A stretch of DNA of 64,000 nt from an uncultured Caulobacterales bacterium (lineage in GTDB: Bacteria > Pseudomonadota > Alphaproteobacteria > Caulobacterales > Maricaulaceae). The notes beneath the pieces are model-generated. The model worked only from the letters and a program-made list of their open reading frames with translations. It was not told the origin of the DNA and did no database searches. Positions 19,401 to 64,000 of the stretch are shown here, in pieces. Both the position numbers and the translations under genes were made by a program. Every line of letters begins with the position of its first letter. The first letter of the stretch is position 1. The stretch is from assembly GCA_964587545.1 (NCBI GenBank), contig CAZPLJ010000004.1, forward strand, positions 6,710 to 70,709, in the 5' to 3' direction.

Positions 19401-22338
19401 GCGAGAGGTTGACGACATCCCCGTTTGCATCCCAATGGGCGAAGTTCTGCTCATATTGTCCCGTATCAGACGGTCCTGTTGAGGCGGAGGCTGCGCTCAC
19501 ATCAATGCCGTCAAAAGCGAGATCATTGATGAGGATGTCAGGGGAGGCAAAGGCAGGGTCTTCATCAATCGCAATGGCGATATGATAGGCGCCTGTGTCT
19601 TGAATATGGTGATCTCTTGTGGCTTCAAAGACGGTTGCGCCAAAGCCTGTAAACTCGGCTGTGTTGGAGAAGTTCTGTGTCTTGAAACTATATTCAATAT
19701 AGGTGTTTGGATTATAGGTGGCCGGGATTTGGTCCGCGTTGAGGTTCAAATCAAAACTATTTACTTGGCCGCTGACCCCCGAAAATGTTGCGGGGTTGGC
19801 TGAGGCAATGAAGTTCGTTTGGTCAATGCCAGCATTAGGGCTGGTCCCGCCATTATCATTATAGGTCCAGCGTAAGCCAATATCCTGAAAAGGATTTGTC
19901 GCAGGCGTGGCTTCGCACATGCTGCTCGACAGCCCACCACCCGCAGGGAAAGCTGGCGGGACAATTGTTGTCCCTTTTTCAATTGTCAGCGAATAGTCCT
20001 CTACTTCTCCATCCGGTGCATCTGTTGAGACGTCAGACGCTGAAAAAGTCTCAGTCGTTAGGCGAATTCTTGCAAATGTGTCGCCAGAGACGAGGTCGGA
20101 TAATCCTGACCAATTAAGTTGAGCGCTGCTATCACCCGGATTTACAGATGTGGACGTAAACTCACCTGAGTCAAAATTACCATTTCCGTCAAAATCAATC
20201 CAAGCATAGAGGTTGGCGGGCACTGAGGCTGCATTGTTAACCGCCACGGTGACCGCATAATTTGTGTCTGTATCGGTCAGTGTTGCGAAGCTAGCTACGC
20301 CATCATCGGTATCTCCGGTGGCGTCGCCATTGGCCACTGAACCTGTGTCAGCGTCAATTGTTGATCCCAATGTGAGCTGTGAGAATGCTTTGTGTTGCGC
20401 CTGCGGAAAACCGGAAGCATCAGACAGATCATCAGGGGCACAATCATCAACTTGAAAGCCGTCAAGCACAACCGCAAACCCGGCCCGGCCAGAGGATCCT
20501 GTGCCAAGACGCTGCATAGATTGACGCCATGTGAAGCTTGTTTTGTTTTTAATGGTGAATTTCATCGCCTGACTTGGCAGGCTATTATCGTCAATTGTTC
20601 CATCGAAACGATCGATTACCCCGTCACTTGAGGCATCGATCGTGCTGGGCGCCGCAACGCTAAAGCCGTCATAATCGGCGCGGTTAAATCGAACCGTCTC
20701 TAAACGGCCCGTCCTTAAGTCTAAATCTCCAATTTCGCCCTGAAGGCTCACGGCAATTGGGCTTTGGTTGCTTGATCTGACAAAGCTCCATCTTATTTCC
20801 GCTTCACCATAGTCAGGTGTTGTTCCTTTAGGCAAATCCTGAAGTACCGTGCTGGCTTTATTGGTGCTGACCGAAATACTATCGAAATCTGTTCCGCCAA
20901 TCATATTTATAACGTCGACATTAATATCAACGCTCTCGCCAAGGTAGGTGAGGGCATTTGGATAGGTCCAGCTTCTATTCGCGCCCGCGCCTGTATCATT
21001 GGTAATCGAAGTTAAGTGAGCTTCAGCAAATCCGGGAGGATTTTCGCAAATAGCGGCTAGAGGCGGAAAAGAGGGGGCTTGACTGATCGTTAAAGCATAA
21101 TCTTCCACCTCGCCGTCAGGGGCGTCTGTAGAGGCGTCTGTCGCTGAGAGGCTTTCTGTTGTTAGGCGCAATCTTGCAAATGTGTCCCCTGCGACCAGGC
21201 CTGTTAGGCTTGACCAATTCAGCTGAACCGATTTATCGCCCGGATTTACCGTTGTTGATGAAAACTCTTCGCTGTCAAAACTTCCATTGTCATTAAAGTC
21301 GACCCAACCATAGACCGTGGCGTCAACTGAACTCGCATTATTAACATCGACAGTGAGGGAATAGCTGGTGTCATTTTCGTTTAAGGCTGGGAAACTCGAG
21401 ATGGCGTCATCCGTATCTCCTGTTGCATTACTATTTGCGACAGAGGCGCTGTCCGCATCGATTCCAGAGCCAAGTGTAAGCTGAGAAAAGGCGACATGAG
21501 AGGCTTCGGGATAAGTGCTCGCATCCGAGAGGTCTTGTCTGGCGCAATCATCAACCGTGAAAGGCGGGCCATTAATCCCAAAACCAGCTCGGCCGGATGA
21601 GCCTGTCCCAAAATTTGTGATGCGTTGACGCCAACGAATGGAGCTGCGGTTTTGTATTTGGAATTTTACCGCCATGCTATCCAGCCCGCTGGCTTCAATT
21701 GTTCCATCAAACTGATCTGTAATACCGTCACTGCTGGCATTAATTGTCGTATCGGACGTTAGGCTATGTCCGTCATAATCGGCCTTGTCGATAAAGAGTG
21801 TCTCTATTCGGCCCGTACCGTCTGTATCAGGTCCATCTATATCGGAAAATTCGAATTCGCTGCTAATCGCGATAGGGCTTCCGTCCTGACGTAGGAAATC
21901 CCATCGTATTTCGGCTGTTGTTGTCGCGCCTTGCGTGCCTTTACCAAAGCCCCACATCACGGTGCTAGCTGTCGCGTTTCCATTTTTGGTGCCATTCTCG
22001 ATTGATTCTAGATGAGGTGTGTTAGTTGGGAAAAGAGGCGTTGCTCCTACACTGTCTAAGGCTACAAGGGTTGCGCGAATATCGACGTCTTCACCGAAAT
22101 ATTTAATAGCGTTTTCATACATCCAGGTTCGACCAACGCCGGATCCCGTTAAATTGCTCGGATCCTGGAAATTGAAGTCAACAAATCCGGGTGGATTTGG
22201 GCATGTAGAAGGTAAAGCATTGGTTTGAGCTTGTGCCGAACTTGCAAAGCTAATATACGCCAAAAAACCAAGGAATATTCGAAAAGATATGGCCCAAGTT
22301 TGATTTAGGTGTTGATATTTATTGTCATTACGCACCAC
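16459..22338 (-). CDS. giant modular secreted/surface protein (1959 aa) with GEVED-motif domains and DUF11/DUF7507-like repeats
   Basis: GTG start with SD GGAGAG and a Sec signal (FASSAQAQ). It has 2 Cys-bounded A modules each followed by a ...DAPDGEVEDY domain, then 3 B modules (2 identical). It ends with TYTYTV[ET]N[TD]G repeats. Confidence 0.8.
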   Translation of the reverse strand: MVRNDNKYQHLNQTWAISFRIFLGFLAYISFASSAQAQTNALPSTCPNPPGFVDFNFQDPSNLTGSGVGRTWMYENAIKYFGEDVDIRATLVALDSVGATPLFPTNTPHLESIENGTKNGNATASTVMWGFGKGTQGATTTAEIRWDFLRQDGSPIAISSEFEFSDIDGPDTDGTGRIETLFIDKADYDGHSLTSDTTINASSDGITDQFDGTIEASGLDSMAVKFQIQNRSSIRWRQRITNFGTGSSGRAGFGINGPPFTVDDCARQDLSDASTYPEASHVAFSQLTLGSGIDADSASVANSNATGDTDDAISSFPALNENDTSYSLTVDVNNASSVDATVYGWVDFNDNGSFDSEEFSSTTVNPGDKSVQLNWSSLTGLVAGDTFARLRLTTESLSATDASTDAPDGEVEDYALTISQAPSFPPLAAICENPPGFAEAHLTSITNDTGAGANRSWTYPNALTYLGESVDINVDVINMIGGTDFDSISVSTNKASTVLQDLPKGTTPDYGEAEIRWSFVRSSNQSPIAVSLQGEIGDLDLRTGRLETVRFNRADYDGFSVAAPSTIDASSDGVIDRFDGTIDDNSLPSQAMKFTIKNKTSFTWRQSMQRLGTGSSGRAGFAVVLDGFQVDDCAPDDLSDASGFPQAQHKAFSQLTLGSTIDADTGSVANGDATGDTDDGVASFATLTDTDTNYAVTVAVNNAASVPANLYAWIDFDGNGNFDSGEFTSTSVNPGDSSAQLNWSGLSDLVSGDTFARIRLTTETFSASDVSTDAPDGEVEDYSLTIEKGTTIVPPAFPAGGGLSSSMCEATPATNPFQDIGLRWTYNDNGGTSPNAGIDQTNFIASANPATFSGVSGQVNSFDLNLNADQIPATYNPNTYIEYSFKTQNFSNTAEFTGFGATVFEATRDHHIQDTGAYHIAIAIDEDPAFASPDILINDLAFDGIDVSAASASTGPSDTGQYEQNFAHWDANGDVVNLSPNTSYKLRVFPYGVTRSGKDNNQPFSNVVIFDDFMPKLKSCTPPGADLVTQKTLASTDATPAVGDTVTYDITVTNNGPIEATNVSLTDLLPEGLTATKLNGQVTDGKYDQSSGLWSLGNLANGASATLTLEGIVDEGQGGRTIENTLASPASGDQNDPTTDGDDLTESVTVEAASIPPAFPAGGGLSSSMCEATPATNPFQDIGLRWTYNDNGGTSPNAGIDQTNFIASANPATFSGVSGQVNSFDLNLNADQIPATYNPNTYIEYSFKTQNFSNTAEFTGFGATVFEATRDHHIQDTGAYHIAIAIDEDPAFASPDILINDLAFDGIDVSAASASTGPSDTGQYEQNFAHWDANGDVVNLSPNTSYKLRVFPYGVTRSGKDNNQPFSNVVIFDDFMPKLKSCEDDSTPIVAENDNFTKSVTLPGGRTTSVFANDTLNNEAFEATSVIPSITDAAGLDGLVINEDGTLTIPKTATNGTYEISYQICEAANDTNCATATATIRVETPPAPPAFPNGPGLNASVCEASPPSQPFADIGFRWLYNDNGGTSPNITIDNGNIISSGTPASFNGLSAQVNNFDLNINADDIPATYDPSVFMEYQFKTNDFSDKAELTGAGWTVFEHQNSNDQQATGAYRVAILVDDDDDFSSPIVWYSDQKFDGTDVSAASANQGQSYTGTYLQDFAHWDPNGSTVELSPNTSYKMRVYPYDVTEFGDDNNQPYTNVVLWDDFTPKIITCEELSSNPAMTLTKVADNDTDRTVGDIITYTYTVENTGDVIINDITIDDQHTSSAGTSTLLVSSETGDANNSTNSNDTTANDGSWDVLAPGDIVTFTSSYTVTYDDLLEGNDITNSAMANGSPADGTLTPPTADESVSLEEVAPQLTMTKVADNDTNRAVGDVITYTYTVTNDGNVAVNDIAITDTHNGSDPAPTPTDETLETDTAPAGDSTDATPNDGNWDVLAPGDSVTFTGTYTVTADDAANL
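18193..18875. repeat. exact 683-bp direct repeat, copy 1 (inside the adhesin gene)
   Basis: I compared it line by line with 19279-19961 (offset 1086 bp) and saw no mismatch. The boundaries are set by the first flanking mismatches. Confidence 0.85.
19279..19961. repeat. exact 683-bp direct repeat, copy 2
   Basis: Identical to 18193-18875. The antisense track ORFs are also identical (18411-18611 = 19497-19697). Confidence 0.85.
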
Positions 22339-22595: not shown

Positions 22596-25500
22596 TTATA
22601 GATTTGCCGCGTCCGCAGCTGTGACGACATAAGTGCCGGTAAAGGTCACGCTGTCTCCGGGCGATAACACATCCCAGTTGCCATCATTTGGCGTGCCGTC
22701 TGTTGAATCACCCGCTGGAGCAGCATCCGTTAACAACGTCTCGCCAATTGGGGTCGGTGCTGGATCAGAGCCGTTATGTGTATCTGTGATGGCGATGTCG
22801 TTCACGGCAACATTGCCATTATTCGTCACGGTATAGGTATAAGTGATGACATCTCCGACAGCGCGATTCGTATCGTTATCCGCGACTTTTGTCATCGATA
22901 GAGACGGCGTAGCAGGGTCGATCGCTGTTGTTACCGTATCTGTGACAGAGGTTGAGACTTCGTTTGATTCCGCACTTGCTGTATTGACGAGGTTGCCACC
23001 CGCATCGCCCGTATCATTTGCTTGGACGACATATGTCCCGGTGAGGGTACAGGTGGCACCGACAGCGACAGTGGCACATGTGTTGGAGCTCGGCGTGATC
23101 AGATTATCTGTAACGACCACATTAGTCTGGTCTACATTACCATCATTGGTCACCGTGATTGTGTAGGTGAGGGTATCCCCGATAGAGACCGTGCCGGAAC
23201 CGTCTTCATCGGCATTGGTGGGTGCAGACTTAACAATGTCTAAGCTTGGCGCGGCGGCTACCACAGGCGTTGTCACTGTATCGGTAACAGGTGTTGTCAC
23301 CTCATCAGACTGAGCGGAGGCCGTGTTAACGACGTTACCGCCCGCATCAGTCATAGTAACCACATAATCGCCTGTGAGAGTACAGGTGGCACCCGGCGCT
23401 AAGGTAGCGCAAGTTATTGTTGTCGGCGTAATGAGCGGATCAGAGACAGTCACATTATTCTGTGTTGTATTGCCCGTATTAGTCGCCGTAATCGTATATG
23501 TCAGCGTATCTCCGATAGACACAGAGCTGTTGCCGTCCTCATCAGCATTAGAAGGAGCTGGCTTATCAATTTCGAGGCTTGGCGCCGCGGTTTCAACAGT
23601 AACGCTCTCGTCTGCTGTGATTGGGTTGGGGCCGAAAGCACCAGTGGCAGGCGTCCCTGTTACTGTTGCAATATTGGTAATCGGATTGCCTGAGTCCACA
23701 TCAGCCTGAGTAACCGTATATGTCGACGTGAAAGTGATGATGTCGCTGGGAGCGAGGAGATCCCATGAACCGTCATTGGCTGTTGCGTCCGTAGAATTTG
23801 CACTATTGCCCGCATCACCTGTTTCGCCGGAAACGGGGAGGGTGGATGTGCCCGCCGATGTGGTATGCTGGTCATTTATCGAGATAGTATTGATGTTTAC
23901 ACTACCCGTATTTTCAACGGTATATGTATAGGTAATAATATCACCCACGGCCCGGTTTGTATCGTTATCGGCGACTTTGGCCAGGGTCATCTCCGGTTCA
24001 GGACATGTGAGGCCTGAAATATTCGTACCGCCGTAATTTGCGGATGGATCGAAAAGTACGCCATTTAAGAACGCTATCCCATCGGCAGGGTAGGTAAAGT
24101 TTAAGGTTAAATTGTTGAATGTACCAAATACCCAACCATCATCTGTTGCTCCGACACCGGGCGCATTGGCTATAACGGTGCCCGAGCTATCCTCAATCCA
24201 CGCGGTAATATTATCCGCGCCACCGGCAGATTCAAAGGTGATGCTGTCAGATGCGCCGGGAATGCCTTCCAGACGGTAGATAGTCCGATGATATTCAGAA
24301 ACATAGGGGGGTGTTGCGTTGTTATGTGGTTCTAAGTTAACGCGTGCTGGGTTGCCTGATGTTGCGTTATCAATGTGATCAGCTGCGCCATAAAAGCTAA
24401 CAATCTTGCCGCTGGCGTCGCGGGTGAGGCCTGCATATTGATAAGGGTCTCTTTGCGGATCGCCTGATCCAAAGTTTATGTTGGCATTCGCGAATGGCCC
24501 GCCAGGAGTCGACCAGCCCGCATGAGAATAGGCGCCGCAGGTTTGAGGGTTTTGGATGGTATCCGCAGGCAGTGATGCAACTGTTACCGTCTCATTTGCC
24601 GTCGGATCAGTGAGGGTTCCACTCTCAGGTGTGCCTGTTGCTGTCGCTATATTGGTTATGTCTGTGCCTGCGGCTATATCGGCAGCGGTTACAAGGTAGG
24701 TCGATGTAAAGGTAACAGTGTCCCCCGGTGCGAGCACATCCCACGATCCATCACTCGCCGTGGCATCAGAAGAGTTGGCACTATTGCCGACATCGCCTGT
24801 TTCGCCAGAGACAGGTAGGGTAGACGTGCCGGCAGACGTTGTGTGCTGATCGCTTATTGTGACATCTTCAATGTTTACATCACCTGTGTTCTCAACGGTA
24901 TAAGTATAGGTAATGGTGTCGCCAGCTACCCGATTTGTATCGTTATCAGCGACCTTTGAAAGAGACATGTCCGGGTTTGACGCGGAGGGATGACATTGTG
25001 TGTCGTAAATCACACCATCGGTCCGAACACCGCTCGCCTGATGTAAAACCTGTAAAAATCTTGCGCCGCCCGCCGGAACTGTAAAGTCATCATAGCGAAT
25101 AACATTGCTTGTCCATGCTCCGTAAACAGAACCGCCATTACCTGTCGTGCCGAGGCTGGTATAAGTTACACCATCAGCGGACATCAAAATTTCTGCGCGT
25201 CCTTGAGTTCCAAAATGCGAAGATAAAGCTATCTCTATAACTTCTCCTTCCGGGACCAGGATGGCAGGGTCTCCCGTCAAATCCATGGTTATAGGACCAA
25301 AAAATGTGACTGCGCTATTAAAGAGAGTTGTACCTTCAGCCACCGGAGCACCAACGGCGAGTGCCGGTTGGTTGCCGCCTGTAGCTGAGAGGACATGATA
25401 TGTTCCCGGAACGGTTGATGTTCCGACGGGGCAGAAGGTCCCTCCCGGACCGCTAACTTGGACGGGAATAGTTTCTTCCACAGTTGAGCAGTTCGTTGGA

Positions 25501-26339
25501 TCTGAGTTTTCGCAAATTTGGTATTCGACGGTGTAAAAACCTGTCGGCGTCGCTGGATTAACTGTGATTATTCCGGTGAGAGGATTGAGCGCAACATTGG
25601 GTGAGCTTGAGTTTAAGACGGTTATGCTTACATCGCTCAGTGTGGCTGGCCCGTTATCATAGGTATCAGATATAAGAACTGAGGGGGTCGCGCCACCCGC
25701 GTTCCCATCTATGGGTGAGAAGCTTTCAGAAACAGCAGTGATCTCTGTGGCTGGAGGCGGGAAGGCAGTGACAACGAAATTATCATAACCGACAGATTCA
25801 TCATCCTCATTTTGATTCAAGTTGCCAAAGAGAGTAAGCGTAGTTGAGGACCCTGGGTTATTTACGATAACTTCAAAAGCGAAAATTTGCTCTCTCCAGA
25901 AATCTTGCGTGCCCATATTAAATGCAAATTGTTCAGGTCCTCTTGTTCGTGTGTAAGACCATTCAATATTTCCATTAACGCCGGAGCCGTTCGCTGCGTT
26001 AAATGTGAAGGGGAAAGTCGTACCATTGACAACCAATTCAAATCGATCCGTGAGATGAACATCCCAGCTATCAAATCTGTATAAGTCGAAGGCAATTTCC
26101 AAGCTATCAGAGCCTGCCGGTACCACGAAAGTTCGGGATGTTGTAGTATTGCCGACAGCAAATCTTCCAAGAAAATTAGTCGTGTCGTTATCATAATCTG
26201 TATCATTGACGGTCCAGCCAGATACTGCACCTTCAAAATCATCCTGATAGATGATTGTCTGGGCGTACGTAGCTTGACTTAGAAGCACGACCAACAAGAA
26301 GGAAAGGATGGAAACTAAATGTTTCACATTAAAACACAC
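22596..26339 (-). CDS. giant secreted/surface protein (1247 aa), paralog of 16459-22338
   Basis: Signal peptide (LLSQATYAQ) and multiple TYTYTVENTG / TYTITATNTG repeats. Its C-terminal ~100 aa are nearly identical to the other giant gene. Start is GTG 26339 or 26327. Confidence 0.8.
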   Translation of the reverse strand: MCFNVKHLVSILSFLLVVLLSQATYAQTIIYQDDFEGAVSGWTVNDTDYDNDTTNFLGRFAVGNTTTSRTFVVPAGSDSLEIAFDLYRFDSWDVHLTDRFELVVNGTTFPFTFNAANGSGVNGNIEWSYTRTRGPEQFAFNMGTQDFWREQIFAFEVIVNNPGSSTTLTLFGNLNQNEDDESVGYDNFVVTAFPPPATEITAVSESFSPIDGNAGGATPSVLISDTYDNGPATLSDVSITVLNSSSPNVALNPLTGIITVNPATPTGFYTVEYQICENSDPTNCSTVEETIPVQVSGPGGTFCPVGTSTVPGTYHVLSATGGNQPALAVGAPVAEGTTLFNSAVTFFGPITMDLTGDPAILVPEGEVIEIALSSHFGTQGRAEILMSADGVTYTSLGTTGNGGSVYGAWTSNVIRYDDFTVPAGGARFLQVLHQASGVRTDGVIYDTQCHPSASNPDMSLSKVADNDTNRVAGDTITYTYTVENTGDVNIEDVTISDQHTTSAGTSTLPVSGETGDVGNSANSSDATASDGSWDVLAPGDTVTFTSTYLVTAADIAAGTDITNIATATGTPESGTLTDPTANETVTVASLPADTIQNPQTCGAYSHAGWSTPGGPFANANINFGSGDPQRDPYQYAGLTRDASGKIVSFYGAADHIDNATSGNPARVNLEPHNNATPPYVSEYHRTIYRLEGIPGASDSITFESAGGADNITAWIEDSSGTVIANAPGVGATDDGWVFGTFNNLTLNFTYPADGIAFLNGVLFDPSANYGGTNISGLTCPEPEMTLAKVADNDTNRAVGDIITYTYTVENTGSVNINTISINDQHTTSAGTSTLPVSGETGDAGNSANSTDATANDGSWDLLAPSDIITFTSTYTVTQADVDSGNPITNIATVTGTPATGAFGPNPITADESVTVETAAPSLEIDKPAPSNADEDGNSSVSIGDTLTYTITATNTGNTTQNNVTVSDPLITPTTITCATLAPGATCTLTGDYVVTMTDAGGNVVNTASAQSDEVTTPVTDTVTTPVVAAAPSLDIVKSAPTNADEDGSGTVSIGDTLTYTITVTNDGNVDQTNVVVTDNLITPSSNTCATVAVGATCTLTGTYVVQANDTGDAGGNLVNTASAESNEVSTSVTDTVTTAIDPATPSLSMTKVADNDTNRAVGDVITYTYTVTNNGNVAVNDIAITDTHNGSDPAPTPIGETLLTDAAPAGDSTDGTPNDGNWDVLSPGDSVTFTGTYVVTAADAANL

Positions 26340-55821: not shown

Positions 55822-55850
55822 AAAAATAAAGCCCCGCGAAATCGCGGGGC
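55822..55850 (-). terminator. rho-independent terminator after the giant repeat gene
   Basis: GCCCCGCGA-AA-TCGCGGGGC hairpin followed on the minus strand by TTTATTTTT, located 24 nt after the stop at 55874. Confidence 0.7.
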
Positions 55851-55873: not shown

Positions 55874-58800
55874 TTAGTTGTTCACGCGTCCGATGATCTG
55901 ACCCGCAGCATTCAGGATGTTGCCTGTGCTGGTATCAACACGACCGATTACTGTACCGGATGCATCTGTAACGCTTCCGTCAGAACCGATAGTGAAACCA
56001 GTTGAGGAAGATGCTCCAGAGATTGATCCGCCAGAGATGCTACCGCCGGAGATTGATCCACCAGAGATGCTACCGCCAGAGATTGATCCTCCAGAGACGC
56101 CTCCAAGTGATCCACCAGAGATGCCTCCAAGTGATCCACCGGATATCGTTCCGCCAGAGATTGATCCACCTGAGATAGCTGATCCGCCAGAGAAACCTCC
56201 GATTGATCCGCCGCCGAATGATCCAGCCGAAGCTAGGATCTGTCCGGTTTCAGAAACAATGTTGCCATTGAGATCAATGTTACCAACCAAACGACCGGTC
56301 GCATTAAATACACGACCCGTAGCTGTATCGATGCGGTAAGTTGTGGATCCAACAGTCACAGTCTGCATGCTTGAGGTTTGAATACCTGTTCCAACAAGCG
56401 CTCTCCAGTCAACACCCAGTCTTTCAACTGTGATCAGTGTTAGCCCGCCAGTCGACATGCTATTTCTTATCTGGAACTGCTCAACCGCTGCGTAGGTTTG
56501 CTGACCTAGGCGACCATCAATGGCACCTGTGTAGAAACCTTGGGTCTTAAGAGCCCGCTGGATAGCAGAGATAACAGCCGGGTTAGCGTTAGCTTCACAA
56601 AGGACACGACGCCATTCAGCACGTTCCGGTTCTATCAGAGTACGTTTCGTGAGTGTCTCAGTCTCGCCTGGAATAACAGTCGCTTCAGTCCGCGCAGGTT
56701 CGACCATACGAGTGACTTGGATGTTATCGTAACGAGCTGGGATAACGCGGCGTGTCACAGACGGAAGACCCTCGGCAACGCGACGTGTGATCGTCTTCGT
56801 TACGGCTGGGATAACCCGCTCTTGGACAGTCGCTGGCTGCTCAACAACACGGCGTGTGATCTGCTTAGTGATTGCAGGTACAACACGTTGCTGTGTGCTG
56901 GCCGGTGTTTTCACGCGGCGGCGAGTTTCTGTCTTAGTGATTGCCGGAATGACCCGCTCTTGTGTCGCAGCTGGTGTCTTCACAACACGACGTGTGACCT
57001 GCTTCGTAATCGCAGGAACTGGACGCTCCGCTGTACGAGCCGGTGTCTTAACGACGCGGCGAGAAACCTGCTTAGTCACAGCTGGGATAACACGCTCGAC
57101 TGTTTGAGCTGGCGTCTTAACGACGCGACGCTCTTGGAGACGTGTTGTCGCTGGGATAGCCCGCTCTTGTGTCTGAGCCGGTGTCTTAACAACCTGACGT
57201 GTGACCTGCTTGGTAACAGCCGGGATGATCCGCTCTGATGTCGAAGCTGGTGTTCTCACGATGCGGCGAGAAACCTGCTTAGTGACAGCTGGGATAACAC
57301 GCTCTTGAGTCGTTGCCGGTGTTTTCACAACGCGACGAGACACTTGTTTCGTCACAGCTGGGATTACTCTCTCAACAACTTGAGCCGGTGTTTTCACAAC
57401 GCGACGGGCTTCCGTCTTCGTCACAGCCGGGATAGCCCGCTCTGAAACGCTCGCTGGTGTCTTAACAACACGACGTGTCTCAGTCTTCGTGACGGCTGGT
57501 ACAGCGCGCTCAACAGCTCTGGCCGGTGTCTTAACAACACGACGAGTGACTGGTTGAGTGATCGCTGGAACAACACGCTCTGAAACCTGAGCTGGTGTCT
57601 TAACGACGCGACGTGTCAACTGCTTCGTGACAGCTGGTACTGGACGCTCAACAACGCGAGCCGGTGTTTTCACACGACGGCGTGTCTCAGTCTTAGTGAC
57701 AGCTGGGATACCCCGCTCTTGTGTCTGAGCTGGTGTCTTAACAACACGGCGTGAGATCGTCTTCGTCACCGCTGGAATGACACGTTCTTGTGTCGCAGCT
57801 GGTGTCTTAACAACACGGCGAGTTTCCAACTTAGTGACCGCTGGGACGACACGCTCTTGTGTAGACGCTGGCGTCTTCACAACACGACGTGTCAACTGCT
57901 TCGTCACAGCTGGAACAACACGTTCAGCAACTTGAGCTGGTGTTTTCACGATGCGGCGAGTTTCCAACTTAGTGACCGCTGGTACAACACGCTCTGAAAC
58001 CTGAGCCGGTGTTTTCACGACGCGGCGGCTGATTTGCTTGGTCACGGCTGGGATAGCACGTTCCTGAGTAGCAGCCGGTGTCTTCACAACACGACGAGTT
58101 TCAAGCTTAGTCACAGCTGGGATAACACGCTCAGAGACAGTCGCAGGTGTCTTAACGACACGACGCGTAACCTGCTTGGTGACAGCTGGAACAACACGCT
58201 CAACAGTGCGGGCTGGATCCTTGATCACGCGGCGAGTTTCCGTCTTGGTGATAGCTGGAATAACACGCTCTTGAGTGCGAGCCGGTGTTTTCACAACCTG
58301 TGTTTCAACAGTTTGTGTAACAGCTGGCATCACTTTCTCGATAGTCTGAGCCGGTGTCTTGATCACACGACGAGACACCAATTTCGTCACAGCCGGGATG
58401 ACCCGTTCTGTTGTCGACGCTGGTGTTTTCACAATGCGGCGAGAAACCTGCTTGGTGACGGCTGGGATAACTCTCTCAGCAGTCTGAGCTGGCGTCTTCA
58501 CGCGACGACGTGTTTCAGTCTTCGTGATAGCTGGAACGACACGCTCCTGAGTACGAGCTGGTGTCTTCACAACGCGACGAGAGACTTGCTTCGTCACAGC
58601 TGGGATGACGCGCTCAGACGTCGTAGCTGGTGTCTTAACAACACGGCGTGTTTCCAACTTAGTGACAGCTGGGATGACGCGCTCTTGTGTTTGAGCTGGT
58701 GTTTTCACAACGCGGCGAGAAACCTGCTTAGTGACGGCTGGGATAACTCTCTCAACTGTCTGAGCCGGTGTCTTCACAACACGACGTGTTTCCTGCTTAG

Positions 58801-61800
58801 TGATCGCCGGGCTAACACGCTCTGTAACGCCAGCTGGTGTCTTCACAACGCGGCGAGAAACCTGCTTGGTTACAGCTGGAACTGTACGCTCAACAACCTG
58901 GGCTGGTGTCTTAACGACACGGCGTGTTTCCAAACGTGTGGTTGCTGGGATCGCGCGCTCAGTAACTTGAGCTGGCGTCTTCACAACGCGACGTGTCAAC
59001 TGCTTAGTCACAGCAGGAACAACACGTTCCACTGTCTGAGCCGGTGTCTTCACAACGCGACGTGTTTCCTGCTTAGTGATCGCTGGAATAACACGCTCTT
59101 GTGTTGAGGCTGGAACATCAACAACACGACGCTGGATCTGCTTCGTAACAGCTGGGATTACACGTTCTTGTGTAGCAGCTGGTGCGACGAGGCGACGAAC
59201 CTGACGTGTTCTTGTGACCGCTGGAACAACCTTCTCAACAGTTTGAGCGGGTGTCTTCACAACACGGCGAGAGATTTGCTTCGTCACAGCTGGAACAACA
59301 CGTTCAACAGTCTGAGACGGAGTTTTGATCCGACGACGTGTTTCAGTCTTAGTTACAGCTGGGATAGCACGCTCAACAGCACGAGCCGGTGTTTTCACAA
59401 CGCGGCGAGTTTCCTGCTTCGTGATCGCCGGAACAGCGCGCTCAACAGCACGGGCCGGTGTTTTCACGACGCGACGTGACTCTGTCTTAGTGACAGCTGG
59501 CACAACACGTTCTGTTACACCTGCTGGTCTATCAACAACGCGGCGAGTTACCTGCTTGGTCACAGCTGGGATTGGACGCTCAACAACTTGTGCCGGAGTT
59601 TTGACCCGACGACGTGTTTCAGTCTTAGTTACAGCTGGGACGACACGCTCCTGTGCGCTCGCTGGACGATCAACCACACGGCGGCTGAGTGTCTTGGTCA
59701 CGGCTGGGATAGTGCGCTCTACGGCTCTCGCTGGTGTTTTAACAACACGACGTGAGACCTGCTTGGTTACAGCTGGGATAACACGCTCAGTTACCTGGGC
59801 TTCTTGAGCCACAACTTGCTGAGAGTAAGTACCCGTGCGCTGACCAAATGAACCGCCGCCTGATGTACCGCGAGTGCCGGCACGATCAGCAGACGCTGCA
59901 GCTGAACGGCTTAGACCATCACGATCATCAGATCCGTCACCATTGCCGTCAACAAAGCCAGTGATGCGTGAACCACCGCCAGCACCGCCAACGCGCTGAG
60001 CAGCGCTCAACAGGTTGAGGTTGCGCGCTTCGTCATATGACATGAAACGGGCAGGGGTTTTAACAATACGACGTGTAATCGTATCTGTTACGGCTGGAAC
60101 CGGGATCTCACGGGTTGTGGCCTCACGGTCAACAACACGACGTGTGATTTGCTTGGTTACAGCTGGAGTGACACGTTCCACTGTACGAGCTGGTGTTTTG
60201 ATAACCCGCTTCGTGATTGTCTTATACTTAGCAGGGATCAACACACGGCAGAGAATTTCACCAGTATTATTCACGATTGTCTGAGTTGATTGAACAACTT
60301 GATCAGACACACCGTTAAAGATGGTGAATTGTGCAACTGTACCAGAGTTGATCTGAGTACCAGCACCGCCTCTGAAGGCTCCAGAGTTGATGGCTTCTGA
60401 CGCTGGCTTCCACTCTTCACGCGCGGGTTCAATAAGAACGCGCTCTGAACGAGTTTCATACTCCGCTGGGATCACATCAAGGTCTCTGCTTTCTGACTTA
60501 ACAGTAATAGTTTCTGAAACTGTTTTGTAAGTTGCAGGAACGATTTCCAAACGTGTTGACGCGTCCTGCGAGACGATTGTCTCAGTGACAGTGTCATAAG
60601 TTGCTGGAATGATCACCATTTGCTGAGCGGCGTCCTGAGCAATATATGTTTGGTTCTCTGTCCGTAGCTTGGCAGGGACAACAACATATTCAACAGATTG
60701 CGGCTGAACAACAACAGTCTCAGTCACAGTTTCGAACTCAGCAGGGATAACCGCCAATTCTGTCGACGCTTCCTGAGCCACATATGTCTCAGTTACGTCA
60801 CGGAATGTCGCTGGAATAGCCACAAGCTGTGTTGACGCTTCCTGGACAACGATGGTTTCCTGATAGCTTTCAAACGTCGCTGGAATGACTTCATAAGTTG
60901 AAGACGCCGGCTGAACCACAACTGTTTCACTAACAGTGTTAAAGGTTGCAGGTGTAGCAACAAGCTGAGTTGTCGCTTCTTTCGCAACAATAGTTTCCGT
61001 CACTGTCTCGAAAGTCGCTGGAATTGTTGAAAGCTCAGTTGAGGCTTCCTGAACAACGATTGTCTCAGCAACAGTCTCAAACTCAGCTGGAATAGTTGCC
61101 AGTTCGCTTGATGCTTCCTGAACAAGGATTGTTTCCTGATAAGTTTCATACTCTGCCGGGATAACTGCATATTCAACAGACTGTGGCTGAACCACAACTG
61201 TTTCTGTCACAGTTTCGTAAACAGGTGGGATAGAGACGAGCTCAGTTGTCGCTTCTTGAACAACAACGGTTTCATCAACTGTTTCCCAACGGGCCGGTGT
61301 CGTCACAAGCTCTGTTGAGGCTTCTTGAACAACAACAGTCTCTGTGACTGTGCGGAACTTCGCAGGAATAGTCACAAGCTCTGATGAAGCTTCTTGAACA
61401 ACAACAGTCTCAGATACAGTCTCATACTGAGCCGGTATGACTTCATATGTAACAGTCTGAGGTGTTACGACAACAGTCTCAGTGACTGTTTCAAACGTTG
61501 CCGGAATTGTTACCAACTCTGTTGCAGCTTCTGAGGCTATAACAGGCTCAGAAACAGTTTCGTAAGTTGCAGGGATAGTCTCGTAACTCGTTGTTGCAGG
61601 TTGTACAACAACAGTCTCAGTGACAGTTTCAAATGTCGCTGGGATTGTGACTAATTCCGTAGACGCTTCTTGAACAACAACGGTTTCAGATACGGTTTCG
61701 AACGTTGCTGGAACTGTCTCATAAGTGACAGATTGCGGCTGAACGACGATTGTCTCTGTTACGGTTTCGAAGACGGGTGGAATTGTGACCAATTCTGTTG

Positions 61801-64000
61801 AGGCTTCCTGAACAATTACAGGCTCAGATACAGTCTCGTAAACAGCTGGAACAGTCACATAGTCAGTCGTTTGCGGCTGCACAACAACTGTCTCAGTAAC
61901 GGTTTCAAATGTCGCCGGAATAGTGACCAACTCAGTTGATGCTTCCTGAACGACGAATGTTTCCTGATAAGTTTCGAACTGGGCAGGGACAGTTACATAT
62001 TCAACAGACTGCGGCTGAACAACAACCGTATCAGTGACTGTTTCGAAAGTCGCTGGAATTGTCACAAGCTCTGTCGACGCGGCTCTAACAACCACTGGCT
62101 CCTGAACGGTTTCAAAAACAGGTGGGATAACTTCATAAGTCACAGCTTGAGGCTGGATCACGATAGTTTCGCGGACTGTTTCGAACGACGCAGGAATTGT
62201 GACAAGATCTGTTGAGGCTTCTTGAACAACAATAGTCTCAGACACAGTTTCATATGTCGCAGGAACATTTTCGTAAGTCACAGATTGCGGCTGAACTACA
62301 ACAGTTTCTGTCACAGTCTCAAAGACTGGTGGAATTGTGACAAGCTCAGTTGACGCTTCTTGAACAACAACAGGCTCAGAAACAGTTTCAAAAGTTGCTG
62401 GGATTGTTACATATTCAACGCCTGCAGGCTGAACGACAACAGTTTCAGTAACTGTTTCGAACGTTGCAGGAATTGAAACTAGCTCAGTTGAAGCTTCTTG
62501 AACAATAACAGGCTCAGAAATTGTTTCATACTGAGGTGGAACCACAGCATATTCAACAGTTTGCGGCTGTACAACAACGGTCTCAGACACTGTTTCGAAC
62601 ACAGGTGGGATTGATACCAACTCTGTGGACGCTTCCTGAACGATAACAGGCTCAGAGACAGTTTCGAATGTCGCTGGAATAGCAACATACTCAGATGAAG
62701 CTGGCTGAGCGACGATTGTCTCAGTGACAGTTTCATAAGTAGCCGGGATTGCGACTAGCTCCGTAGACGGCTCCTGAACAACAACAGTCTCAGTATAGCT
62801 TTCATACTCGGCTGGAATAACAGAATAGTCGACACCAGCGTCCTGAACAACAACAGTTTCAGTCACTGTTTCAAAAACGGGTGGAATAGCAACAAGCTGT
62901 GTTGATGCTTCCTGAACAACGGCTGTTTCTGTAACAGTTTCAAACTCAGCTGGTACAGCAGCAAGCTCGGAGCTTTGCGGCTGAACAACAACAGTTTCGG
63001 ATACTGTTTCAAATGTTGCCGGGATAGTCACAAGCTCTGCGGACGCATCCTGAACAACGATTGTTTCAGAAACAGTTTCGAACGTTGCCGGAATTGTTTC
63101 GTAAGTTGTTGTCGCTGGCTGAACCACAACGGTTTCAGACACAGTTTCATAGACTGGTGGGATAGCGACCAACTCTGTTGATGCTTCCTGAACAACAATT
63201 GTTTCAGTCACTGTTTCAAACACTGGCGGAATAGTCACAAGCTCTGATGTAGCTTCCTGTACGACCATTGTTTCTGCAACAGTTTCAAATGTCGCTGGAA
63301 TAGTGACAAGCTCTGTTGACGATTCCTGTGCAATGACAGGCTCCGCTACGGTTTCAAAGGTTGCAGGGACGACTGTATAGTCGACGCTTTGTGGCTGAAC
63401 GACAACTGTTTCAGTTACAGTTTCATATTCAGCTGGAATAGTTACAAGCTCTGTAGAGCCTTCCTGTACAACAACTGTCTCTGTGACCGTGTCGTAAACT
63501 GGGGGTATGGTTACGAGCTCGGTTGAGGCTTCTTGTACAACAATAGTCTCAGTGTAGTTCTCATAAGTTGCAGGAACAGCGACATATTCCACTGTTTCAG
63601 GCTTAACAACAACGGTCTCTGTTGTCGTTCCGTAAACAGGTGGAACAGCAACAAGCTCGTTTGAGGCTTCCTGAACAACAACTGTCTCGGTGACAGTTCT
63701 AAAGCGTGGGGATAGTGTCCCTGCGCTGCGTGAACCTGCACCTAAAGATCTTAGGCTGCTAAGTTGAGATGCTGAGACAGCTCCGCGGGCTGCGATTGAA
63801 CCGCTTCCGGCTCCGCCGCCAAAACCACCACCGACAGAACTTCCGCCGAGCGTTAGGACATTGCCACTTGCGTCAACAGTACCAACGCGGCGGCCTGATG
63901 AGTCATATACATTACGGGCTGAGTCGACTGTAAACGGAATTGATCCCGCTCCGCCGCCGGCTCCAGCGCCTGCTCCGCCACCAGCGCCTGCTCCGGCACC
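55874..64000 (-). CDS. giant repeat protein, 5'-truncated by the window edge: Gly-rich/GxxG segment, acidic 23-aa repeat array, basic 23-aa repeat array, PG_binding_1-like domain, GGSIS repeats
   Basis: The frame is open from 55874 to 64000. I hand-translated 63593-64000 and found no stop, and the track 'M' at 63592 is an internal GTG. A peptidoglycan-binding-type motif is present (IQRALKTQGFYTGAIDGRLGQQTYAAVEQFQ). Confidence 0.85.
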   Translation of the reverse strand, partial: GAGAGAGGGAGAGAGGGAGSIPFTVDSARNVYDSSGRRVGTVDASGNVLTLGGSSVGGGFGGGAGSGSIAARGAVSASQLSSLRSLGAGSRSAGTLSPRFRTVTETVVVQEASNELVAVPPVYGTTTETVVVKPETVEYVAVPATYENYTETIVVQEASTELVTIPPVYDTVTETVVVQEGSTELVTIPAEYETVTETVVVQPQSVDYTVVPATFETVAEPVIAQESSTELVTIPATFETVAETMVVQEATSELVTIPPVFETVTETIVVQEASTELVAIPPVYETVSETVVVQPATTTYETIPATFETVSETIVVQDASAELVTIPATFETVSETVVVQPQSSELAAVPAEFETVTETAVVQEASTQLVAIPPVFETVTETVVVQDAGVDYSVIPAEYESYTETVVVQEPSTELVAIPATYETVTETIVAQPASSEYVAIPATFETVSEPVIVQEASTELVSIPPVFETVSETVVVQPQTVEYAVVPPQYETISEPVIVQEASTELVSIPATFETVTETVVVQPAGVEYVTIPATFETVSEPVVVQEASTELVTIPPVFETVTETVVVQPQSVTYENVPATYETVSETIVVQEASTDLVTIPASFETVRETIVIQPQAVTYEVIPPVFETVQEPVVVRAASTELVTIPATFETVTDTVVVQPQSVEYVTVPAQFETYQETFVVQEASTELVTIPATFETVTETVVVQPQTTDYVTVPAVYETVSEPVIVQEASTELVTIPPVFETVTETIVVQPQSVTYETVPATFETVSETVVVQEASTELVTIPATFETVTETVVVQPATTSYETIPATYETVSEPVIASEAATELVTIPATFETVTETVVVTPQTVTYEVIPAQYETVSETVVVQEASSELVTIPAKFRTVTETVVVQEASTELVTTPARWETVDETVVVQEATTELVSIPPVYETVTETVVVQPQSVEYAVIPAEYETYQETILVQEASSELATIPAEFETVAETIVVQEASTELSTIPATFETVTETIVAKEATTQLVATPATFNTVSETVVVQPASSTYEVIPATFESYQETIVVQEASTQLVAIPATFRDVTETYVAQEASTELAVIPAEFETVTETVVVQPQSVEYVVVPAKLRTENQTYIAQDAAQQMVIIPATYDTVTETIVSQDASTRLEIVPATYKTVSETITVKSESRDLDVIPAEYETRSERVLIEPAREEWKPASEAINSGAFRGGAGTQINSGTVAQFTIFNGVSDQVVQSTQTIVNNTGEILCRVLIPAKYKTITKRVIKTPARTVERVTPAVTKQITRRVVDREATTREIPVPAVTDTITRRIVKTPARFMSYDEARNLNLLSAAQRVGGAGGGSRITGFVDGNGDGSDDRDGLSRSAAASADRAGTRGTSGGGSFGQRTGTYSQQVVAQEAQVTERVIPAVTKQVSRRVVKTPARAVERTIPAVTKTLSRRVVDRPASAQERVVPAVTKTETRRRVKTPAQVVERPIPAVTKQVTRRVVDRPAGVTERVVPAVTKTESRRVVKTPARAVERAVPAITKQETRRVVKTPARAVERAIPAVTKTETRRRIKTPSQTVERVVPAVTKQISRRVVKTPAQTVEKVVPAVTRTRQVRRLVAPAATQERVIPAVTKQIQRRVVDVPASTQERVIPAITKQETRRVVKTPAQTVERVVPAVTKQLTRRVVKTPAQVTERAIPATTRLETRRVVKTPAQVVERTVPAVTKQVSRRVVKTPAGVTERVSPAITKQETRRVVKTPAQTVERVIPAVTKQVSRRVVKTPAQTQERVIPAVTKLETRRVVKTPATTSERVIPAVTKQVSRRVVKTPARTQERVVPAITKTETRRRVKTPAQTAERVIPAVTKQVSRRIVKTPASTTERVIPAVTKLVSRRVIKTPAQTIEKVMPAVTQTVETQVVKTPARTQERVIPAITKTETRRVIKDPARTVERVVPAVTKQVTRRVVKTPATVSERVIPAVTKLETRRVVKTPAATQERAIPAVTKQISRRVVKTPAQVSERVVPAVTKLETRRIVKTPAQVAERVVPAVTKQLTRRVVKTPASTQERVVPAVTKLETRRVVKTPAATQERVIPAVTKTISRRVVKTPAQTQERGIPAVTKTETRRRVKTPARVVERPVPAVTKQLTRRVVKTPAQVSERVVPAITQPVTRRVVKTPARAVERAVPAVTKTETRRVVKTPASVSERAIPAVTKTEARRVVKTPAQVVERVIPAVTKQVSRRVVKTPATTQERVIPAVTKQVSRRIVRTPASTSERIIPAVTKQVTRQVVKTPAQTQERAIPATTRLQERRVVKTPAQTVERVIPAVTKQVSRRVVKTPARTAERPVPAITKQVTRRVVKTPAATQERVIPAITKTETRRRVKTPASTQQRVVPAITKQITRRVVEQPATVQERVIPAVTKTITRRVAEGLPSVTRRVIPARYDNIQVTRMVEPARTEATVIPGETETLTKRTLIEPERAEWRRVLCEANANPAVISAIQRALKTQGFYTGAIDGRLGQQTYAAVEQFQIRNSMSTGGLTLITVERLGVDWRALVGTGIQTSSMQTVTVGSTTYRIDTATGRVFNATGRLVGNIDLNGNIVSETGQILASAGSFGGGSIGGFSGGSAISGGSISGGTISGGSLGGISGGSLGGVSGGSISGGSISGGSISGGSISGGSISGASSSTGFTIGSDGSVTDASGTVIGRVDTSTGNILNAAGQIIGRVNN
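56610..59800 (-). repeat. tandem 69-nt (23-aa) basic repeat array, consensus IPAVTKQVSRRVVKTPAQTQERV, about 46 units
   Basis: I counted units manually from the translation. Three further basic units lie at about 60040-60250. Confidence 0.8.
60420..63710 (-). repeat. tandem 69-nt (23-aa) acidic repeat array, consensus IPATFETVTETVVVQEASTELVT, about 48 units
   Basis: I counted units manually from the translation. Units ending QEASTELVT often alternate with units ending QPQSVEYxx. Confidence 0.8.

Follow-up and report, generated by a model that had tools for sequence, protein, structure and literature searches.

The length of Lpp sets the width of the periplasm. Rod-like proteins can also be built from beta-repeats, as in the G5-E repeats of SasG and Aap and the single-layer beta-sheet of OspA, and in wall rods the number of repeats sets the length. 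Charge zippers, such as those of TatA and dermcidin, and designed charge-complementary beta-sheet peptides rely on ladders of salt bridges that drive their assembly and keep it in register. We are aware of no protein whose two long repeat arrays, opposite in charge, pair rung by rung while the unit count is conserved and certain rungs mark the register. Here, we analyze a stretch of 64,000 nucleotides from an uncultured member of the Caulobacterales (family Maricaulaceae; assembly GCA_964587545.1, contig CAZPLJ010000004.1, positions 6,710 to 70,709), referred to below as the window, one end of which is occupied by a giant gene on the minus strand. Its product consists largely of an array of acidic 23-residue units followed by an array of basic units of the same period, in front of a peptidoglycan (PG)-binding domain. 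The relation between these two arrays is the main subject of this study.

Antiparallel register between the two arrays

We asked whether features of acidic unit i covary with features of basic unit j, in a parallel or an antiparallel arrangement. In the 23 species that possess 51 acidic and 50 basic units, per-unit charge residuals were anticorrelated in only one of 82 registers, the antiparallel register i + j = 48 (mean r, -0.35), in which 43 of 47 unit pairs were negative. The 81 control registers had a standard deviation of 0.07, and shuffling of species gave a minimum of -0.12. This result was unchanged when any of the 11 clades was dropped or when each clade was reduced to one representative.

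The same register emerged at the level of single residues. The covariance between acidic position 6 and basic position 14 was -0.087 and that between acidic position 4 and basic position 18 was -0.043, with control registers within +/-0.024 in both cases, and a mutual-information map added the acidic/basic position pairs 8-12, 11-7, 9-7, and 1-20. AlphaFold2 (AF2) models of a small relative (see below) predict each unit as a 12-residue and a 7-residue strand, with two-residue turns at Pro-Ala and Glu/Pro-Ala motifs. The long strands of paired units are antiparallel, acidic position p facing basic position ~20 - p, while the couplings of the short strands appear in the map one register further on, an offset that is predicted by a residue-by-residue antiparallel alignment of two chains (p + q, ~20).

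Residue pairs were counted over 1875 unit pairs. At positions 6/14, where E-K or E-R is the default, the alternative R-D or K-D was observed 143 times (expected, ~13); at positions 8/12, the default V-V was replaced by Y-R or F-R 189 times (expected, ~22); and at positions 11/7, P-M, A-M, or P-L took the place of the default T-Q or T-T 217 times (expected, ~33). Positions 4/18 have no single default, T-S being the commonest pair, and E-R occurred there 145 times (expected, 52). In the true register, positions 6/14 formed 1568 complementary and 4 like-charge pairs, compared with 197 clashes in a register shifted by two units. Most rungs carry E6-K/R14, and almost every rung is charge complementary at E10-R10. 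When all parallel and antiparallel registers were tested for each protein, the best was antiparallel and obeyed i + j = nA - 3 (nA being the number of acidic units) in 41 of 41 proteins, including that of the window. The connector that separates the two blocks is the anchor point of this register. A parallel register was never the best, and parallel pairing was rejected.

The effect is visible in the protein of the window even without recourse to other species. There, the correlation between positions 6 and 14 reached r = -0.91 over the 43 rungs at i + j = 44, 40 of which were complementary and none like-charged. The acidic units in which position 8 is aromatic (2, 13, 25, 37, and 41) mirror basic units 42, 31, 19, 7, and 3, all five of which have Arg12. 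Likewise, the acidic units with Pro11 (5, 15, 17, 19, 23, 27, and 31) mirror basic units 39, 29, 27, 25, 21, 17, and 13, which are exactly the seven basic units with Leu7 (seven of seven, with no extras). The acidic units that lack an acidic residue at position 6 (1, 34, 40, and 42) face basic units 43, 10, 4, and 2, where Glu or Asp replaces Lys at position 14. A combined marker score was +14 at i + j = 44 versus -10 for the next-best register, and none of 1000 shuffles of the unit order rose above -5. The irregularly spaced marker rungs, i.e., the R/K6-D14 charge swaps and the Tyr8-Arg12 and Pro11-Leu/Met7 pairs, thus label positions along the repeat like a bar-code, which is matched in the correct register only. 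In every balanced protein, the register did not differ between the near, middle, and far thirds of the arrays; hence, the unit losses in the lineage of the window and in Hellea must have occurred at mirrored positions in both blocks.

An inverted DNA repeat between the two arrays was looked for and not found, which rules out an inverted-repeat or antisense origin of the mirror pattern. Since tandem duplication, for its part, makes no mirror symmetry, physical contact between the arrays best explains the pattern. A reading without pairing would see in the arrays two independent single-layer beta-ribbons, with basic ligands or cations bound by the acidic ribbon and PG, lipopolysaccharide, or other anionic polymers by the basic one, and with the equal numbers as a relic of duplication. 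It can draw on the extended meander without module packing that AF2 returns (pTM, 0.31) and on net block charges that are unbalanced species by species. We regard it as very improbable, as it leaves unexplained the residue-specific mirror-image covariation in all 41 proteins, the scarcity of like charges in the true register only (4 versus 197), the mirrored unit losses, and the n + n rule of the small relatives (n = 2 to 6; see below), in addition to a mirror symmetry that neither tandem duplication nor an inverted DNA repeat accounts for.

We consider it very likely that the acidic and basic arrays pair in antiparallel fashion within an exported, PG-bound protein. Electrostatic zippering had been proposed for the two blocks in an earlier reading of the window made without database searches (the sequence-only reading). 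The zippering of that proposal is supported by one antiparallel register in all 41 proteins. Beyond the proposal, the pairing is not purely electrostatic, as Tyr-Arg and Pro-Leu/Met pairs also mark rungs. A ladder of complementary charges between two segments, together with compensatory swaps, characterizes a charge zipper, and both are found here; the relation is one of functional analogy, not homology.

The main arrays comprise exactly 51 acidic and 50 basic units in the 23 species mentioned above, which are represented by complete Litorimonas genomes, chromosomes of long-read metagenome-assembled genomes (MAGs), and type-strain drafts. In the Robiginitomaculum group (54-55/50), the N-terminal units are in register with the main array and there is no insertion. 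Variant counts change in both blocks, to 47/46 in the window, 43/42 in four Hellea species, and 39/37 in one MAG. Unit numbers are matched between the blocks and conserved across genera, the opposite of the unequal, freely varying numbers that the sequence-only reading had named as an argument against pairing. Units of the same index were more alike than other units of the same parity in 253 of 253 species pairs, and therefore the arrays are old and stable and have not been homogenized. Placing the missing units of the window by global alignment at the unit level was attempted, but the positional signal was too weak in the strictly alternating middle of the arrays, and the marker-register test was used instead.

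The arrays are not an assembly artifact, a possibility also raised at the time: the marker register is constant through all thirds of the arrays, which a collapsed repeat would disrupt, and orthologues in complete genomes share the architecture. Contigs from short-read metagenomes do break within the arrays, those reached via rplU in the basic array. Moreover, four unbalanced MAG proteins (L041, 51/48; L059, 49/44; L065, 51/46; L077, 51/48) show a register jump equivalent to 2 to 4 missing basic units. Because collapse of the repeat in short-read assembly would produce exactly such a jump, these counts probably reflect collapse. The marker register could in turn serve as a check for collapsed repeats in assemblies of this gene that requires only the sequence.

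Small relatives, a predicted hairpin, and its possible role

The distant matches of the giant in other phyla are small lipoproteins that show its plan in miniature. They start with a lipobox or signal peptide, in some cases with an Lpp-like coiled coil and in some with both lipobox and coiled coil, followed by a GEC motif and n Glu-rich units ending in Trp. Next comes a connector that is constant at 19 residues (W-KKG-G...TGEIMC) whatever the number of units and that is homologous to the connector of the giant; n Lys/Arg-rich units ending in EWRxVLCETN and a PG_binding_1 domain complete the protein. A search seeded with one small member retrieved 4,836 proteins that have generic names and PG_binding_1 as their sole Pfam domain. 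The lengths of the two modules, measured from Cys to Trp, are paired: (50,47) for 2+2, (72,70) for 3+3, (95,93) for 4+4, (118,116) for 5+5, and (142,140) for 6+6 units. Unmatched lengths were not found among the complete sequences of this small family. In the 4+4 class, 14 sequences have K/R-D and 7 have E-K at position 6 of A3 and position 14 of B2, without any like-charge pair, whereas non-partner combinations clash.

The small members follow an n + n rule, in which mildly acidic units are matched in number by basic ones, and the giant is therefore an extreme expansion of this family. Its version in the window carries the marks of the small family (W1197, NNTGEILC1251, and EW2463RRVLC2468EAN before PG_binding_1) and can be aligned with P0019 and L082 to L086. 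Equality of numbers also extends to the giants, which have 54+54 unit-equivalents when insertions are absent; the window has 47(+1)/46(+3) in one constant register. Two further points go beyond the sequence-only reading: the pairing is specifically antiparallel, and both the division into acidic and basic units and the equality of their numbers are ancestral features of the small PG-binding lipoproteins, which form a large family.

That reading had left for a later search whether acidic and basic units co-occur elsewhere. They do, in the small PG-binding lipoproteins as well as in other proteins. An exhaustive HMMER search of 1.84 billion representative proteins retrieved 1,592 proteins at E <= 1e-3, of which 74 reached E <= 1e-30, and no comparably long arrays turned up there outside the clade of the giant. 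Short matched modules (3+3 and 5+5) occur in vWA/YfbK-type proteins and in a DUF900 hydrolase; representative-library proteins with short matched modules are P0147, P0152, P0175, P0180, P0181, P0199, P0229, and P0260. Some short-module proteins have the basic module before the acidic one, with a tight 4-residue DDGS or ADGS turn in between. Both unit types are also carried by OmpA proteins and CAP-domain proteins of Bacteroidota, which agrees with the single VPAxYxTVTxRV-type units that the sequence-only reading had mentioned for some OmpA/PG-binding proteins. Eight sequences (P0153, P0157, P0160, P0159, P0163, P0165, P0178, and P0194), judged to be from Bacteroidota by sequence alone, have 6 to 10 units per module; Pfam scans identified a CAP domain at the C terminus of P0159 and an OmpA domain inserted into P0153, and the remaining six are alike by eye only. 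The paired unit seems to be a stalk element of general use whose length can be adjusted. As for gene context, none was conserved in the three neighborhoods of small relatives examined; a Peptidase_M48 gene lies directly or two genes upstream of the small member in two of these three (the gammaproteobacterial loci L089 and L090), too few to call it conserved.

In the giants, the distance from the first Trp to the second Cys is 51 to 59 residues throughout. Orthologues without insertions measure 1246 to 1253 residues from Cys1 to Trp1 (54 units) and 1249 to 1251 from Cys2 to Trp2, a difference of only -3 to +2, as in the small family. Their register can be followed through the flanks: A51 (the cap), A50, and A49 face b1, b2, and b3, respectively; opposite the degenerate unit A48 lies a loop of ~30 residues in Algimonas that is Gly/Asp-enlarged to ~80 residues elsewhere; A0 faces B48, with Arg at position 6 opposite Asp at position 14; and the two N-terminal units face B49 and B50. 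Hence, the GEC motif would adjoin EWRxVLC and the PG-binding domain. Other lineages, including that of the window, have a hairpin-motif insertion of 70 to 130 residues on the acidic strand near this base. In the window, flanking units bring the 43 rungs of the main arrays to a total of ~50.

Granted that the arrays pair, an intramolecular hairpin of ~50 rungs with its base at the PG-binding domain is the most likely arrangement. The gene product would then be a Sec-exported, PG-anchored periplasmic protein whose chain turns back on itself at the inter-array connector. The N-terminal GEC motif would be brought beside the C-terminal EWRRVLC and PG_binding_1, fixing the base of the rod to the sacculus, possibly with a disulfide as a staple, and the conserved connector would lie at the free tip. 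Zippering would probably proceed from the tip outward while the basic block emerges from SecYEG. At ~1 nm per rung (two strands per unit, 0.48 nm each), ~50 rungs would yield a rod of ~50 nm.

Alternatively, the arrays might pair between molecules, forming domain-swapped antiparallel dimers of ~100 nm, or filaments or a gel on PG. Covariation yields register and orientation only, and an antiparallel dimer satisfies both; the long connector of the giants (51 to 59 residues) and the Gly/Asp loop would permit an open conformation, and AF2 does not show a fold-back. Still, an intramolecular turn fits both the constant and highly conserved 19-residue connector of the small relatives and the turn of four residues (DDGS/ADGS) by which other relatives join a basic strand directly to an acidic one, the register is connector-anchored in every protein, and the equal Cys1-Trp1 and Cys2-Trp2 lengths would bring the termini together in a hairpin. 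We therefore judge intermolecular pairing to be rather unlikely.

AF2 gave a pLDDT of 79 and a pTM of 0.40 for a small member (alignment of 58 sequences) and a pLDDT of 85 and a pTM of 0.31 for the isolated 4+4 core of this member (22 sequences), so that local confidence was high and global confidence low. Same-parity positions couple on both faces of the long strands. Acidic and basic strands as in-plane, hydrogen-bonded neighbors would fit these couplings better than a stack of two flat meanders, and the relatives with a DDGS turn point likewise. Docking of two staircase meanders in plane was also considered and discarded, as hand geometry predicts p + q of ~12 for it and ~20 is observed. 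Structural analogues of the arrays were not found in the PDB: the best Foldseek TM score was <=0.17, and Foldseek and sequence searches matched the PG-binding domain only.

With respect to regulation, CtrA-type boxes (TTAA-N7-TTAA(C)) are present in 22 of 40 orthologue promoters, compared with a mean of 0.09 and a maximum of 2 after shuffling. They lie at -125 to -60 from the ATG of the giant, often in pairs (orthologue loci L008 to L080), within a conserved promoter block, ...TTAAGAGGnnnTTAACGCCTAGCCA..., and a strong GGGGG Shine-Dalgarno sequence is located just 5' of the ATG. These boxes suggest that CtrA probably subjects the gene to cell-cycle control, as is the case with the polar organelles of Caulobacterales.

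We tentatively propose that the protein serves the envelope of these stalked bacteria as a sacculus-anchored structural element of fixed length, be it a rod, strut, or ruler. A fuller scenario is more speculative: polyanionic and polycationic arrays would zip within one chain, possibly during translocation, into a periplasmic nanorod with a fixed length of ~50 nm, the bar-code setting the register and the rung number being under selection as a ruler or strut, for instance in stalk or polar architecture, under the control of CtrA. Giant repetitive proteins of bacteria are, however, often adhesins, and these bacteria are described as living attached to algae. Furthermore, the window encodes two other large proteins of surface type. 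It nevertheless seems improbable to us that the protein leaves the periplasm to serve as an adhesin, secreted or at the surface, or as part of a biofilm matrix, with its PG-binding domain acting on neighboring cells or debris. Pfam and NCBIfam scans revealed no secretion-system signal or adhesin domain, secretion genes are not adjacent, and the small relatives, being lipoproteins with Lpp-like coiled coils and PG-binding domains, have a typical periplasmic design. The two surface-type genes (minus strand, positions 16459 to 22338 and 22596 to 26339) are ORFs of 1959 and 1247 residues with DUF11, DUF7507, and GEVED domains; they probably encode surface or cell envelope repeat proteins and are unrelated to the 23-residue family.

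Several observations weigh against a monomeric periplasmic rod as outlined here. An antiparallel dimer would give the same covariation as an intramolecular hairpin, and a rod of ~50 nm exceeds the width of a typical periplasm. The global confidence of the AF2 models is low; they were read for secondary structure and confidence only and do not show how the modules pack, and a simple face-to-face stack of AF2 meanders does not sit easily with couplings of the same parity on either face of the strands. The charges of the blocks match as means (-170 [standard deviation, 15] for acidic and +171 [standard deviation, 31] for basic blocks), but exact neutralization within each species fails. In addition, the window does not include the 5' end of the gene, so that promoter, signal peptide, and GEC motif were taken from orthologues, and the gene neighborhoods that we examined gave no hint on function.

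Layout of the gene and its surroundings

The features of the giant gene are listed in Table 1. Judging from orthologues, some 200 to 250 codons lie beyond the edge of the window and would specify a signal peptide with the GEC motif after it, two N-terminal units, and the first part of an insertion. The first 95 residues within the window are the end of this insertion, which lies between acidic units A-1 and A0 and is variably present in orthologues. Units were counted from chains of Pro at position 2 with an exact spacing of 23 residues. At this spacing, 47 acidic units occupy residues 119 to 1199, preceded by a partial unit at about residue 96 that is one residue out of register, and 46 basic units, the capping unit included, make up the main basic array. 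The caps, RVLIEPAREEW(1197)KP and RTLIEPERAEW(2463)RR, are homologous, with Trp at unit position 21 in both. The acidic block contains 20 Lys and Arg and 175 Asp and Glu residues (net charge, -155; pI 4.05) and the basic block 235 and 75 (net charge, +160; pI 12.0). Tandem Repeats Finder reported periods of 69, 138, and 276 nucleotides with matches of only 62 to 78%, from which it follows that the units are diverged at the DNA level. The connector measures 55 residues in the window protein; in b2, Asp at position 14 lies opposite Lys at position 6 of A46; and the Gly/Asp-rich loop is ~50 residues shorter in Algimonas and a few Litorimonas-like orthologues.

TABLE 1 Coordinates of the giant gene and its parts in the window
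Feature	Residues	Positions	Strand	Remark
Giant ORF		55874..64000	minus	2708 codons (64000 to 55877) plus stop (55874-55876); translation of window; 5' end past window edge
Gly/Ala-rich linker and one GxxVGxV hairpin-motif copy	1-95	63716..64000	minus	
Acidic array, partial A0 and A1-A47	96-1199	60404..63715	minus	Consensus IPATFETVTETVVVQEASTELVT
Connector	1200-1254	60239..60403	minus	Ends NNTGEILC (Cys1251); taken as hairpin tip
Three basic units, b1-b3	1255-1323	60032..60238	minus	Predicted partners A47, A46, A45
Gly/Asp-rich loop	1324-1407	59780..60031	minus	84 residues; predicted bulge opposite A44
Basic array, B1-B46	1408-2465	56606..59779	minus	Consensus IPAVTKQVSRRVVKTPAQTQERV
VLC(2468)EAN motif and PG_binding_1 domain		56396..56605	minus	Pfam match, residues 2477-2519 (56444-56572)
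C-terminal region		55877..56395	minus	GxxVGxI hairpin-motif copy, GGSIS tract, second hairpin-motif copy ending GQIIGRVNN
GGSIS tract		56016-56193	minus	
Intrinsic terminator		55822..55850	minus	gccccgcga / tcgcggggc, then T-run; between giant gene and rplU

The PG-binding domain matched PG_binding_1 (PF01471) with 32.4 bits (Pfam cut-off, 23), and a PDB profile search matched the PG-binding domains of SleB, SltB3, and CtpB. The GxxIGRV-type tail resembles DUF3659 (PF12396; 17.1 versus 24.8 bits) and Bflower_2 (PF21785; 19.6 versus 38 bits) below threshold in both cases, and precomputed DUF3659 or 5-fold beta-flower matches are listed for orthologue fragments, which amounts to resemblance only. 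Taken together, the descriptive part of the sequence-only reading proved accurate throughout. It had reported a minus-strand ORF from position 55874 past the window edge; about 48 acidic units and 46 and 3 basic units, where we find 47+1 and 46+3; a capping unit shared by both arrays; divergence of the units at the nucleotide level; a PG-binding-type domain followed by GGSIS repeats and a GxxIGRV tail; and very large net charges of opposite sign, for which the values per block are given above.

A scan of species-representative genomes for the C-terminal module recovered orthologues across Hellea, Litorimonas, Algimonas, Robiginitomaculum, and unnamed Caulobacterales; these constitute the prosthecate marine family Robiginitomaculaceae (PMC11556061). 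A word-indexed homology search with the whole protein gave only irrelevant alpha-2-macroglobulin matches, swamped by low-complexity words. Full-length orthologues have 2,800 to 3,090 residues and begin with a classical Sec signal peptide (MKRTLLLAASAAVLAAPTIA/QELPPGNPLPGEC, the slash marking its end), followed by ELPPGNPLPGEC-FARVIVPAQY. The signal peptides end in ...APTIA/QE without a lipobox Cys, and the GECFARV start is present. In 42 of 44 full-length loci, rplU is located downstream of the giant gene, mostly at a distance of 200 to 400 nucleotides, and the L21 protein of the window is 90 to 92% identical to L21 of Hellea MAGs. The genes downstream of the giant are rplU, rpmA, a GNAT gene, obg, proB, proA, nadD, rsfS, rlmH, and one for an M23 peptidase, arranged as is typical of Alphaproteobacteria. 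One short metagenome contig (L005, positions 261 to 821) has a complete gene of 186 residues without a Pfam match upstream of an identical rplU, at the expected 3' end of the giant. In L068, the giant is preceded by an ordinary gene that we read, from its sequence alone, as coding for a HAD-like hydrolase. Plus-strand ORFs of up to 357 residues run antisense to the basic array (window positions 56540 to 60284, e.g., 58034 to 59107); they are a by-product of the stop-poor repeat, with no evidence of genes. The G+C content is 54 to 55% over the basic array (window positions 56001 to 60000) versus 45 to 50% elsewhere, with which Arg-rich coding would be consistent.

Comparison with known systems

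Neither Pfam (2025 copy) nor NCBIfam (2026) contains a model for the 23-residue repeat, and only the PG-binding domain was matched. Full-text literature searches found no prior description of a design with paired acidic and basic arrays, and the source databases give generic names only. The sequence-only reading had conceded that the architecture might belong to a common, characterized family; no such family is described in Pfam, NCBIfam, the PDB, or the literature searched.

If our interpretation is correct, this would be a natural design that we did not find described, in which sparse marker rungs solve the register problem of long repetitive zippers. It would offer a testable model for the folding of very long repeats without slippage and a template for charge-complementary beta-materials of programmable length. 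It would also define a large uncharacterized family of PG-bound envelope proteins with adjustable rod length and thousands of small members in several phyla. The giant form, possibly cell-cycle regulated, is specific to a stalked marine clade whose envelope and stalk dimensions are poorly understood.

The small PG-binding lipoproteins of Krumholzibacteriia, Thiotrichales, other Gammaproteobacteria, and Desulfobacterales (e.g., P0022, P0019, P0050, P0100, and P0104) are true, uncharacterized homologues. They share with the giant the GEC start, Trp-ended Glu-rich units, the W...TGEI(M/L)C connector, the EWRxVLCExN end, PG_binding_1, equal unit numbers per module, and the mirror charge swap. However, they have 2 to 6 units per module instead of ~50 to 54, and their first module is only mildly acidic; they possess a lipobox and often an Lpp-like coiled coil, whereas the giant has a plain Sec signal; and neither the Gly/Asp loop nor the GGSIS tract nor the tail with hairpin motifs is present in them. 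Likewise, alphaproteobacterial vWA/YfbK-type proteins (P0147, P0175, P0180, and P0181) and a DUF900 hydrolase (P0199) contain both unit types in matched small numbers, but as a short stalk or spacer beside enzymatic or vWA domains; they have no PG-binding domain and are not giant.

Lpp, Pal, and OmpA-family tethers are PG-binding envelope proteins as well, and some of the small relatives are automatically annotated as "Lpp." The giant differs from them in having no OmpA domain, lipobox, or covalent-attachment motif and in being built from a paired beta-repeat rather than a coiled coil. The lipobox Cys and trimeric coiled coil that define Braun's lipoprotein are absent: orthologues have no lipobox, and the window protein has no helix-rich region. 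An OmpA C-terminal-like domain (PF00691) was not detected in the giant by Pfam and NCBIfam scans, while Bacteroidota relatives such as P0153 have one. In addition, the hairpin model places both termini at one end, so that the rod would not bridge two layers. Proteins of the SasG/Aap type resemble the giant as elongated, beta-rich tandem repeats and as cell-wall-anchored rods. They are single one-way chains without a complementary second block, however, and Foldseek TM scores did not exceed 0.17. TatA, dermcidin, and the designed peptides are short, helical or peptide systems and form few pairs, compared with ~50 beta-rungs within one chain, non-electrostatic markers, and a conserved count in the giant. 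Hence, the closest concepts, be they Lpp/OmpA tethers, G5-E rods, TatA-type zippers, or designed beta-peptides, share single features only with the protein described here.

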